Shown here in pieces: positions 14,586-14,767 of a stretch of 15,016 nt of DNA; position 1 is the stretch's first letter, and each line of letters begins with the position of its first letter. The DNA is from Parcubacteria group bacterium (GTDB taxonomy: Bacteria > Patescibacteriota > Minisyncoccia > UBA10092). A program made the translations under genes and the position numbers. The notes below the pieces were generated by a model that was not told the origin of the DNA, made no database searches, and saw nothing but the letters and a program-made list of their open reading frames with translations. Where the stretch lies: the NCBI GenBank assembly GCA_016186325.1, contig JACPLW010000013.1, forward strand, positions 1-15,016, read 5' to 3'.

Positions 14586-14613
14586 TTGACAAATTCTGTC
14601 AGTTTGCTATACT
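14586..14613 (+). promoter_or_regulatory. Strong sigma70-type promoter (TTGACA-16 nt-TATACT)
   Basis: TTGACA at 14586-14591, a 16-nt spacer, then TATACT at 14608-14613. The predicted TSS is near 14620-14621. Confidence 0.6.
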
Positions 14614-14619
14614 ATAAAC

Positions 14620-14767
14620 AGTAGGGGTGAGAGCCGGGGCATAAGCCAGGGATTGAAGCCCGAGCACTCTGCGCCTCCCACGCCCCTCGGACAAGACCGA
14701 GGGGGTGAAATACCGGGATTACCGGCCCTGGACCGAGCGCTTCTCCGATGGAGCGCTCTTTTATTTT
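14620..14767 (+). ncRNA. Candidate small structured ncRNA, roughly 150 nt, GC-rich, family not assigned
   Basis: The segment between the promoter and the terminator is by eye far GC-richer than the AT-rich flanks. It has strong local helices, for example cccctcgg-acaaga-ccgagggg at 14683-14704, the repeated motifs agggg(g)tga(g/a)a, and ccaggg...ccctgg long-range complementarity. The ORFs the track places here are Arg/Pro/Gly-rich and overlap the promoter and terminator. Confidence 0.5.
14735..14767 (+). terminator. Rho-independent terminator of the candidate ncRNA
   Basis: gagcgcttctcc-gat-ggagcgctc forms a stem of 4+5 bp with a 3-nt bulge. It is followed by ttttatttt. Confidence 0.6.

Follow-up and report, generated by a model that had tools for sequence, protein, structure and literature searches.

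A predicted small non-coding RNA gene of restricted distribution beside a nuclease gene in a Patescibacteria genome

The stretch of DNA analysed here (the window) is the whole of a 15,016-nt contig (JACPLW010000013.1) of a metagenome-assembled genome (locus-tag prefix HYW79) of a Parcubacteria group bacterium that also occurs in the sequencing runs SRR12113385, SRR12113420, SRR12113424, SRR12113429 and SRR12113430. Minus-strand genes follow each other rightward in the order ribonucleotide reductase, VirD4/TraG-like ATPase, sigma-r4/HARE-HTH protein, SecF, SecD, MVP homologue, MPG and PD-(D/E)XK nuclease, with the gene for EF-P (2741-3361) lying on the plus strand between those for the reductase and the ATPase. 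Next to the nuclease gene and divergent from it lies the unit that is the subject of this report: a promoter, a G+C-rich segment and an intrinsic terminator, all on the plus strand and flanked by what appear to be two decayed gene ends (Table 1). We suggest that this unit is very probably a real, independently transcribed gene for a structured non-coding RNA of ~148 nt, and we hold with moderate confidence that it is a functional small RNA gene expressed from the plus strand.

Table 1. Positions of the predicted features in the window
Feature	Position	Strand	Basis or remark
U element, putative decayed 3' end of a SEC-C-motif gene	14492-14585	-	left homology boundary with L087 and L093
Divergent promoter-like site, TTGTCA-18-TAAAAT	14563-14592	-	10/12 match; consensus match only
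RNA-gene promoter, sigma-70-type, TTGACA-16-tgTATACT	14586-14613	+	11/12 consensus match
Predicted primary transcript, ~148 nt	14620-14767	+	start from position of the -10 hexamer, end from the U-tract
SL1, long irregular hairpin	14624-14677	+	RNAalifold consensus
CCAGGG in the SL1 apical loop	14646-14651	+	candidate pseudoknot partner of 14726-14731
SL2, 11-bp G+C-rich hairpin, loop ACAAGA	14679-14707	+	minimum-free-energy, centroid and consensus folds; invariant in L087
SL3, CCGG-GAUUA-CCGG hairpin	14713-14725	+	single-sequence and consensus folds; invariant in L087
CCCUGG, single-stranded, between SL3 and terminator	14726-14731	+	candidate pseudoknot partner of 14646-14651
Intrinsic terminator	14735-14767	+	9-bp stem with 6 G-C pairs (14735-14758), then UUUUAUUUU
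Second putative decayed SEC-C 3'-end copy (CCTCACGCCCCGTGGCATTTTTTATATTT)	14768-14800	-	right homology boundary with L087

The promoter combines the -35 hexamer TTGACA (14586-14591) and the -10 hexamer TATACT (14608-14613) across a 16-nt spacer, with TG directly 5' of the -10 hexamer, i.e. an extended -10; only two sites in the 15-kb window match the consensus at 11/12 positions, and the second lies directly upstream of secD. About 7 nt past the -10 hexamer begins a segment (14620-14734) of ~66% G+C in a genome of ~40% G+C. The stem of the terminator is trailed by the U-tract TTTTATTTT, and the site ranks second among the terminator-like sites of the window. A covariance-model match spanning 14616-14771 is consistent with the predicted transcript.

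A scan of 241 million metagenome records with a 20-mer from the most conserved part of the RNA identified a sole true relative, Ga0210057_1076550 (L087). The homology between the two sequences is limited to 14492-14790 of the window, beyond which they are unrelated, and is unevenly distributed within these limits: identity is 27/28 in the promoter and 105/108 (97%) in the RNA body formed by SL1-SL3 as opposed to 77/93 (83%) in the non-coding U element upstream of the promoter and 25/36 (69%) in the linker plus terminator. Conservation of the body significantly exceeds that of U (Fisher p = 5e-4) and that of the terminator region (p = 1e-5). The same scan returned three further matches (L084-L086), which we judge to be due to chance. 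They share a 23-mer, GGGGGTGAAATACCGGGATT(T)CC, from a high-G+C organism (L084 369-391, L085 2022-2044 and L086 1147-1169) that lies ~15 nt past a TTGACA-17-TATGGT promoter; otherwise they are dissimilar to the RNA and have no Rfam match.

As a single sequence, the plus strand folds at -65.9 kcal/mol (z = -2.7). The RNAalifold consensus of the window and L087, which rests on two sequences and carries no covariation statistic, consists of the three hairpins SL1, SL2 and SL3 followed by the terminator. In the 5' half, the helices of the single-sequence fold are not the conserved ones, a correction to an earlier, preliminary description of this DNA; a closing helix of the single-sequence minimum-free-energy structure (14622-14626/14726-14730) is broken by a G-to-A change in L087 and was rejected. 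In the consensus, SL1 is built from the pairs GGGGUG (14624-14629)/CGCCUC (14672-14677), AGA/UCU, GC/GC and GGGC/GCCC and is closed by a 17-nt apical loop, AUAAGCCAGGGAUUGAA, which takes the 1-nt insertion between the window and L087. A pseudoknot between this loop and the segment 3' of SL3 is possible, as CCAGGG and CCCUGG could form six perfect pairs; both sides are invariant in the two sequences and hence show no covariation.

The substitutions that fall in stems retain pairing. SL1 has undergone three one-sided changes, two from G.U to A-U and one from C-G to U.G. In the terminator, whose stem is kept, one base pair has changed on both sides in a compensatory manner (G-C to A-U) and two pairs differ by wobble swaps. 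In total, pairing is kept by five of five one-sided changes and by the two-sided one; the chance that a random stem substitution retains a pair is 0.27, giving ~0.0014 for five of five. Because the terminator helix had been called from the window sequence alone, before the comparison with L087, its three changed pairs represent an independent test. Read from the minus strand, the G.U pairs would turn into C.A mismatches, which places the RNA on the plus strand. These observations also bear on the possibility that the unit is a non-functional relic, i.e. a G+C-rich foreign or decayed fragment caught between a fortuitous promoter and a terminator. The relic would be at home here, where genes decay and pseudo-SEC-C ends flank the unit to its left and right, and would fit a very narrow distribution in which sister genomes do without the RNA. 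However, the promoter is conserved, the body is under purifying selection and the terminator has changed in a compensatory manner; moreover, in a genome of 40% G+C a relic would be expected to lose its G+C content and structure. We give the relic little credence.

The unit has no evident coding capacity. Open reading frames (ORFs) across it are short, overlap each other and occur in all frames with no frame being consistent; indels of 3, 1 and 1 nt relative to L087 alter every reading frame and no ORF is common to both copies. The six-frame translation of the RNA has no relatives among 5.8 billion proteins, and exact look-ups of the spurious ORFs over the RNA returned nothing. A type I toxin encoded by a 24-codon ORF in U was considered and rejected; this ORF lacks a Shine-Dalgarno sequence and its middle is frame-shifted between the copies. 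Likewise, Rfam 15 contains no match for the RNA at gathering thresholds, and at E <= 10 only noise (miRNA and flavivirus hairpins) with neither 6S RNA nor any aptamer class; covariance models and ARAGORN detected no SRP RNA, RNase P RNA, tmRNA or tRNA in the unit. Rfam searches of L087, L084, L067/L079 and L091-L094 at gathering and permissive thresholds gave nothing either. Other candidates were rejected individually: a retron msr-msd (no reverse transcriptase gene and no a1/a2 repeats), a tracrRNA or omega RNA (no CRISPR, IscB or TnpB), T-box, ykkC or cobalamin riboswitch fragments (short by-eye resemblances in the wrong order with no covariance-model match) and an rRNA operon leader (no rRNA downstream in L087). 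The RNA matches no described family and is best read as representing a new, lineage-restricted one.

In these respects the preliminary description, made from the window sequence, is borne out: the near-consensus TTGACA-16-TATACT promoter, the clean intrinsic terminator, the G+C-rich structured segment of ~150 nt, the lack of a credible ORF and the lack of an assigned family (tmRNA, RNase P or SRP) all stand, and the self-contained promoter-to-terminator non-coding RNA unit that it proposed is conserved in a second genome with stem changes that keep pairing. Among the kinds of RNA that it listed as options, a novel small RNA survives.

The distribution of the RNA is narrow. Searches with nhmmer and BLAST against 83-97 related loci recovered L087 only, and neither the window nor 1.3 Mb of related Patescibacteria loci, the latter searched with the covariance model R1, contains a further copy; R1 also picked out part of an ORF in L079 and unrelated G+C hairpins past a grpE-like gene in L067, and both matches were discarded as false positives. 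Scans of viral contigs with the RNA or promoter patterns found nothing and BLAST of the RNA against phages yielded chance 26-mers only. In its own right, the run of three consecutive G+C-rich hairpins in L067 (4355-4440), which is intergenic after the grpE-like gene in a Paceibacteria metagenome-assembled genome, may be another structured element. Synteny of the window with the closest genomes (L004, L005, L006 and L008) extends from ~350 to 14470 and ends exactly at the start of the nuclease gene; in these genomes, as in L099-L101, a different gene abuts the nuclease gene and the RNA is lacking. Because synteny ends at this point, the region 14457-15016 is lineage-specific.

This distribution argues against the idea that the RNA is a divergent housekeeping ribonucleoprotein (RNP) RNA (6S, SRP, RNase P, tmRNA or Y RNA) or that it partners the nearby MVP homologue in the manner of a vault RNA. 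Like stable RNAs, it is rich in G+C although the genome is A+T-rich, the MVP gene is only 2 kb away, and relatives that carry MVP share the promoter module whereas MVP-less relatives are without it. However, besides the lack of Rfam and ARAGORN matches, the fold does not correspond to a rod with a bubble or to an SRP hairpin, and the RNA is absent from sister genomes and from MVP loci, contrary to what is expected of a housekeeping RNA: R1 has no match in the MVP loci L088-L098 (L087 is too short to judge co-occurrence with MVP), MVP homologues are very widespread in bacteria without this RNA (6305 matches at E <= 1e-10 and ~50% identity in many phyla), and the single relative among the metagenome records mentioned above points in the same direction. 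Given that sister genomes do without it, the RNA is not a housekeeping one, and we regard either version of this explanation as very improbable. The 6S-like option of the preliminary description falls with it. 6S RNA (SsrS) resembles the unit in being G+C-rich, stable-looking and ~150 nt long with its own promoter, and protein binding is conceivable for both; the unit, in contrast, has three separate hairpins instead of a long helix with a central bubble resembling an open promoter, does not match the 6S covariance model and is not conserved in sister genomes.

The sequence downstream of the unit is informative with respect to a function in cis. No co-oriented ORF with a start signal is found in the 250 nt from the unit to the contig end; this space is taken up by a minus-strand ORF that runs in from the contig end and has its stop near 14961 (...SEAEVIHSHPLDNFDNQA*), and a long, strong, G+C-rich hairpin at 14858-14916 (z = -4.3 on the minus strand) probably serves as its terminator. 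Beside this hairpin, GGTTGTCAAAGT is present in two exact copies 46 nt apart (14920-14931 and 14966-14977). In L087, the promoter side is occupied by dus, and the other side carries a small ORF together with the 3' end of alaS; the nearest ORF downstream is ~240 nt away and absent from the window. The window unit, which lies between the nuclease gene and an unknown gene, has wholly different flanks and, because the flanking genes differ, no cis target is conserved. A cis-regulatory leader (riboswitch or attenuator) that ends in its own terminator, as the preliminary description had offered for a gene past the contig edge, would share with the unit the layout of promoter, structured domain and intrinsic terminator, here resembling the OFF state of a riboswitch, and GAGAG (14629-14633) is a possible pairing partner of CUUCUC, which lies in the 5' arm of the terminator, as judged by eye in the window sequence only. 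But the space downstream is filled by the incoming ORF and its hairpin, the downstream region of L087 is unrelated with no conserved gene, and no known aptamer class was detected even at E <= 10; the leader is largely refuted and retains a very small probability. As far as the sequence allows this to be judged, the transcript most likely acts in trans and not as the leader of a downstream gene.

What bounds the unit is a pair of repeats. U begins with CCCATGACAC (14492-14501), which is the antisense of the Cys-His-Gly codons of the SEC-C motif, and the homology to L087 starts exactly at the left end of U; reverse-complemented, U aligns to the ends of real secA and small SEC-C genes. CCCATGACAC is rare in 1.2 Mb of Patescibacteria loci. 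L087 and L091 each contain three copies in the same orientation that bound different contents; those of L087 (CCCATGACA[CT] at 874-883, 1455-1464 and 1745-1754) include one directly after the alaS stop codon, the third. U of L087 retains the 3' flank of the gene for a small, 109-aa SEC-C protein, which is intact in L091. The repeats align to real SEC-C gene ends, and the pseudo-copies hold a perfect 10-nt core. The simplest reading places the unit between what is left of this small SEC-C gene and the end, decayed or real, of the next one. In L087, the 5' part of the module is also partly duplicated in tandem 300 nt downstream (TCCTTATTTTAAGC..., 1360-1388 and 1660-1688).

Alternatively, the RNA could be the cargo of an exchangeable cassette or small integrative element that inserts at SEC-C gene ends with CCCATGACAC as its core; conceivable cargoes include an antitoxin, a decoy or a guide RNA tied to the adjacent PD-(D/E)XK nuclease. 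Several observations fit: copies of the core with their context bound the homology between the window and L087 on both sides, L087 and L091 have three such copies around different contents, the module is found in two different genomic contexts, and a PD-(D/E)XK nuclease gene of one of two non-orthologous types adjoins the module in 3/4 loci. Moreover, the Logan contigs assigned to the same species break off at 14543-14548 or at 13278, and those from three sequencing runs (L001-L003) all end inside U at 14543-14548, which suggests a repeat or strain polymorphism there; these breaks and the perfect repeat cores would fit such an element. On the other hand, the repeats are more simply the ends of paralogous SEC-C genes (secA and the gene for the 109-aa protein, intact in L091 and L093), and U of L087 keeps the flank of the small gene. 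The examined flanks of the copies carry no gene for a recombinase, transposase or reverse transcriptase, the RNA has no second copy in the loci searched, none in viral contigs and no plasmid link, and the neighbor in L087 is dus, not a nuclease gene. The comparison with integron cassettes and cis-mobilizable elements is similarly divided. In these, too, short gene-3'-end repeats in the same orientation bound differing contents and a constant upstream promoter reads into a variable part; the unit, however, lacks an integrase, attC-like palindromes and evidence of mobility, its "cassettes" are non-coding and its repeats are plausibly paralogous SEC-C gene ends. We therefore consider a mobile cassette, and with it a cargo tied to the nuclease, improbable.

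The relatives that share MVP with the window, i.e. L091/L092 (87% MVP identity) and L093 (85%), show what lies behind the same promoter elsewhere. L093 has, in the orientation of the window, the start of a nuclease gene, CCCATGACAC, U, the promoter TTGACAAATTCTGTGGATTTGCTATAAT, an unrelated RNA of ~95 nt and a second CCCATGACAC, in this case the genuine secA end (...CPCGSGKKYKRCHGR*). The L093 promoter is orthologous to that of the window RNA; the RNA behind it (~548-655, minus strand) is predicted to be multibranched and closed by a ACCAUCAGA/UCUGGUGGU stem plus U6 (z = -2.1). In L091 (~2005-2075, minus strand), U and a promoter that is more weakly related are followed by a 55-nt leader and a hairpin terminator (z = -3.4) ending at an NYN gene. 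Neither candidate RNA has a match in Rfam, and the transcripts of window/L087, L093 and L091 have in common the first ~10 nt only (AUAAnC..CAG). Given that unrelated bodies lie behind an orthologous promoter, the platform is older than any one RNA body; judging from these sequences, the bodies are replaced rather than diverged.

These data bring in a further explanation, namely that the promoter platform, with TTGACA on the plus strand back to back with TTGTCA on the minus strand, is what matters and that the RNA body is incidental; a short terminated transcript might insulate the convergent neighbor from antisense transcription or couple the divergent promoter by supercoiling. The -35 hexamer of the divergent site overlaps that of the RNA promoter and the site is directed at the nuclease gene. 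In L087 both of its hexamers are identical and the spacer alone differs. Orthologous copies of U and the promoter stand in front of unrelated transcribed bodies in the window, L087, L093 and, weakly, L091, and the transcripts are short: that of L093 ends 5 nt from the secA stop codon and that of L091 at the end of the NYN gene. But the window-type body, at 97% identity, is far better kept than U (83%) and the terminator region (69%), it has 66% G+C in a 40% G+C genome, and a segment serving only as a spacer would be expected to drift or to become shorter, as is seen in L091, which manages with 55 nt. We consider it unlikely, while leaving it some appreciable weight, that the platform alone is what is selected, and the same holds for its proposed effects on the neighboring genes.

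A further reading is that exchangeable non-coding RNAs are expressed from this locus. Such a platform would consist of the SEC-C gene-end relic, the strong promoter and a ~10-nt leader ending in CAG and would read into interchangeable structured-RNA cassettes that end at the next SEC-C repeat, with the RNAs of window/L087, L093 and L091 as alternative cargoes that might be tied to the swapped PD-(D/E)XK nuclease. If this is true, Patescibacteria would possess a cassette system for RNA genes; at present it is a speculative arrangement that we rate as quite improbable.

Weighing the evidence for a functional small RNA, several points count against it. Only two sequences of the RNA are available, with the consequence that the shuffle control is powerless and there is no statistical covariation test, and the pairing in SL1 was picked when both sequences were known. 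By synteny and by covariance-model search, the RNA is missing from sister genomes with 85-91% protein identity and is consequently dispensable. Two relatives drive unrelated RNAs from the same promoter, and the part that is conserved in the long term may be the promoter and not the RNA. Finally, a duplex-energy scan for targets among the translation-initiation regions of the window performed no better with the RNA than with shuffled RNAs. We nevertheless favor, at the moderate confidence stated at the outset, a functional small RNA for which we propose the following scheme: (i) the sigma-70 promoter with its extended -10 would start transcription near 14620, (ii) the intrinsic terminator would end the transcript near 14767, (iii) the transcript would fold into the G+C-rich hairpins SL1-SL3 and the terminator hairpin, and (iv) given that nearly all of the 108-nt body is frozen in sequence while the terminator drifts by compensatory change, the RNA may function in its folded form by binding a protein or another macromolecule. 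Alternatively, the conserved 17-nt loop could possibly engage in kissing-type base pairing.

The spacer of the RNA promoter holds the palindrome TGACA-N5-TGTCA, a possible operator. As a separate observation, TGACA/TGTCA pentamers are strongly enriched near the module, with 7 in the last 570 nt of the window (14440-15016) against ~1 expected and 8 within 205 nt upstream of the L087 RNA (reverse complement, L087 415-620).

Among the neighboring genes, the nuclease gene (13701-14456, minus strand) encodes a PD-(D/E)XK protein with weak matches to Cas4 profiles. The preliminary description had called it Cas4-like, which is correct for the fold; no CRISPR context accompanies it, and no IscB, TnpB or IS110 gene is near the unit. 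The protein is conserved across Patescibacteria with 64-91% identity in >575 loci. The nuclease next to the module is non-orthologous in otherwise syntenic genomes, the gene having been replaced at a fixed position: the window encodes a 251-aa type that is 90% identical to those of L004-L008, whereas L091 (2403-3071) and L093 (789-1457) encode a 222-aa type that is only 27% identical to that of the window. The MVP homologue (10097-12607, minus strand; 836 aa) has MVP_shoulder and Vault_3 domains; it is missing from the closest type-A relatives (L004-L008) and present in L091, L093 and L094. Farther away, the VirD4/TraG/HerA-like ATPase (3434-5197, minus strand) carries a C-terminal treble-clef zinc finger and also matches "mad8" of PADLOC (E = 8e-17). 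Its neighbor (5151-6395, minus strand) is a 414-aa protein with no Pfam match, the syntenic L099 protein of which (421 aa) is labelled DUF8128; the pair is kept in all syntenic relatives.

Among described RNAs, the unit can be compared with stand-alone small RNAs of the RsaE/RoxS type of low-G+C bacteria. Such RNAs similarly have their own sigma-70 promoter, a Rho-independent terminator, a length of ~100-200 nt and several hairpins, are intergenic, and show a genus-level distribution with fast turnover between related genomes. The unit differs from them in matching no Rfam small RNA family, in being conserved over its whole body and not in a short seed, and in having its C-rich stretches inside helices and not in loops. 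We know of no small RNA chaperone or target in Patescibacteria. Non-coding RNA loci in genomes of the Candidate Phyla Radiation have been described in the form of TIGR arrays and guide RNAs in Patescibacteria, in which tandem 36-nt units with box C/D-like edge and loop repeats lie adjacent to a Tas gene encoding a Nop domain (PMC12045711). Beyond being such a locus, the unit has little in common with these arrays: it has no 36-nt periodicity, no box C/D motifs and no CRISPR array, and no Nop-domain protein is found among the ORFs of the window.

The RNA families known for these reduced, episymbiotic genomes are, to our knowledge, the housekeeping ones, and a limited full-text search of the literature found no small RNAs described in Patescibacteria. 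Against this background the finding is modest, comprising two sequences with a narrow distribution. Nevertheless, the conserved promoter, the purifying selection on the body and the compensatory change in the terminator make the RNA a concrete candidate for regulatory or RNP biology in Patescibacteria and a target for metatranscriptomics. In addition, the occurrence of unrelated RNAs behind one orthologous promoter in close relatives bears on how small RNA genes are born and replaced.

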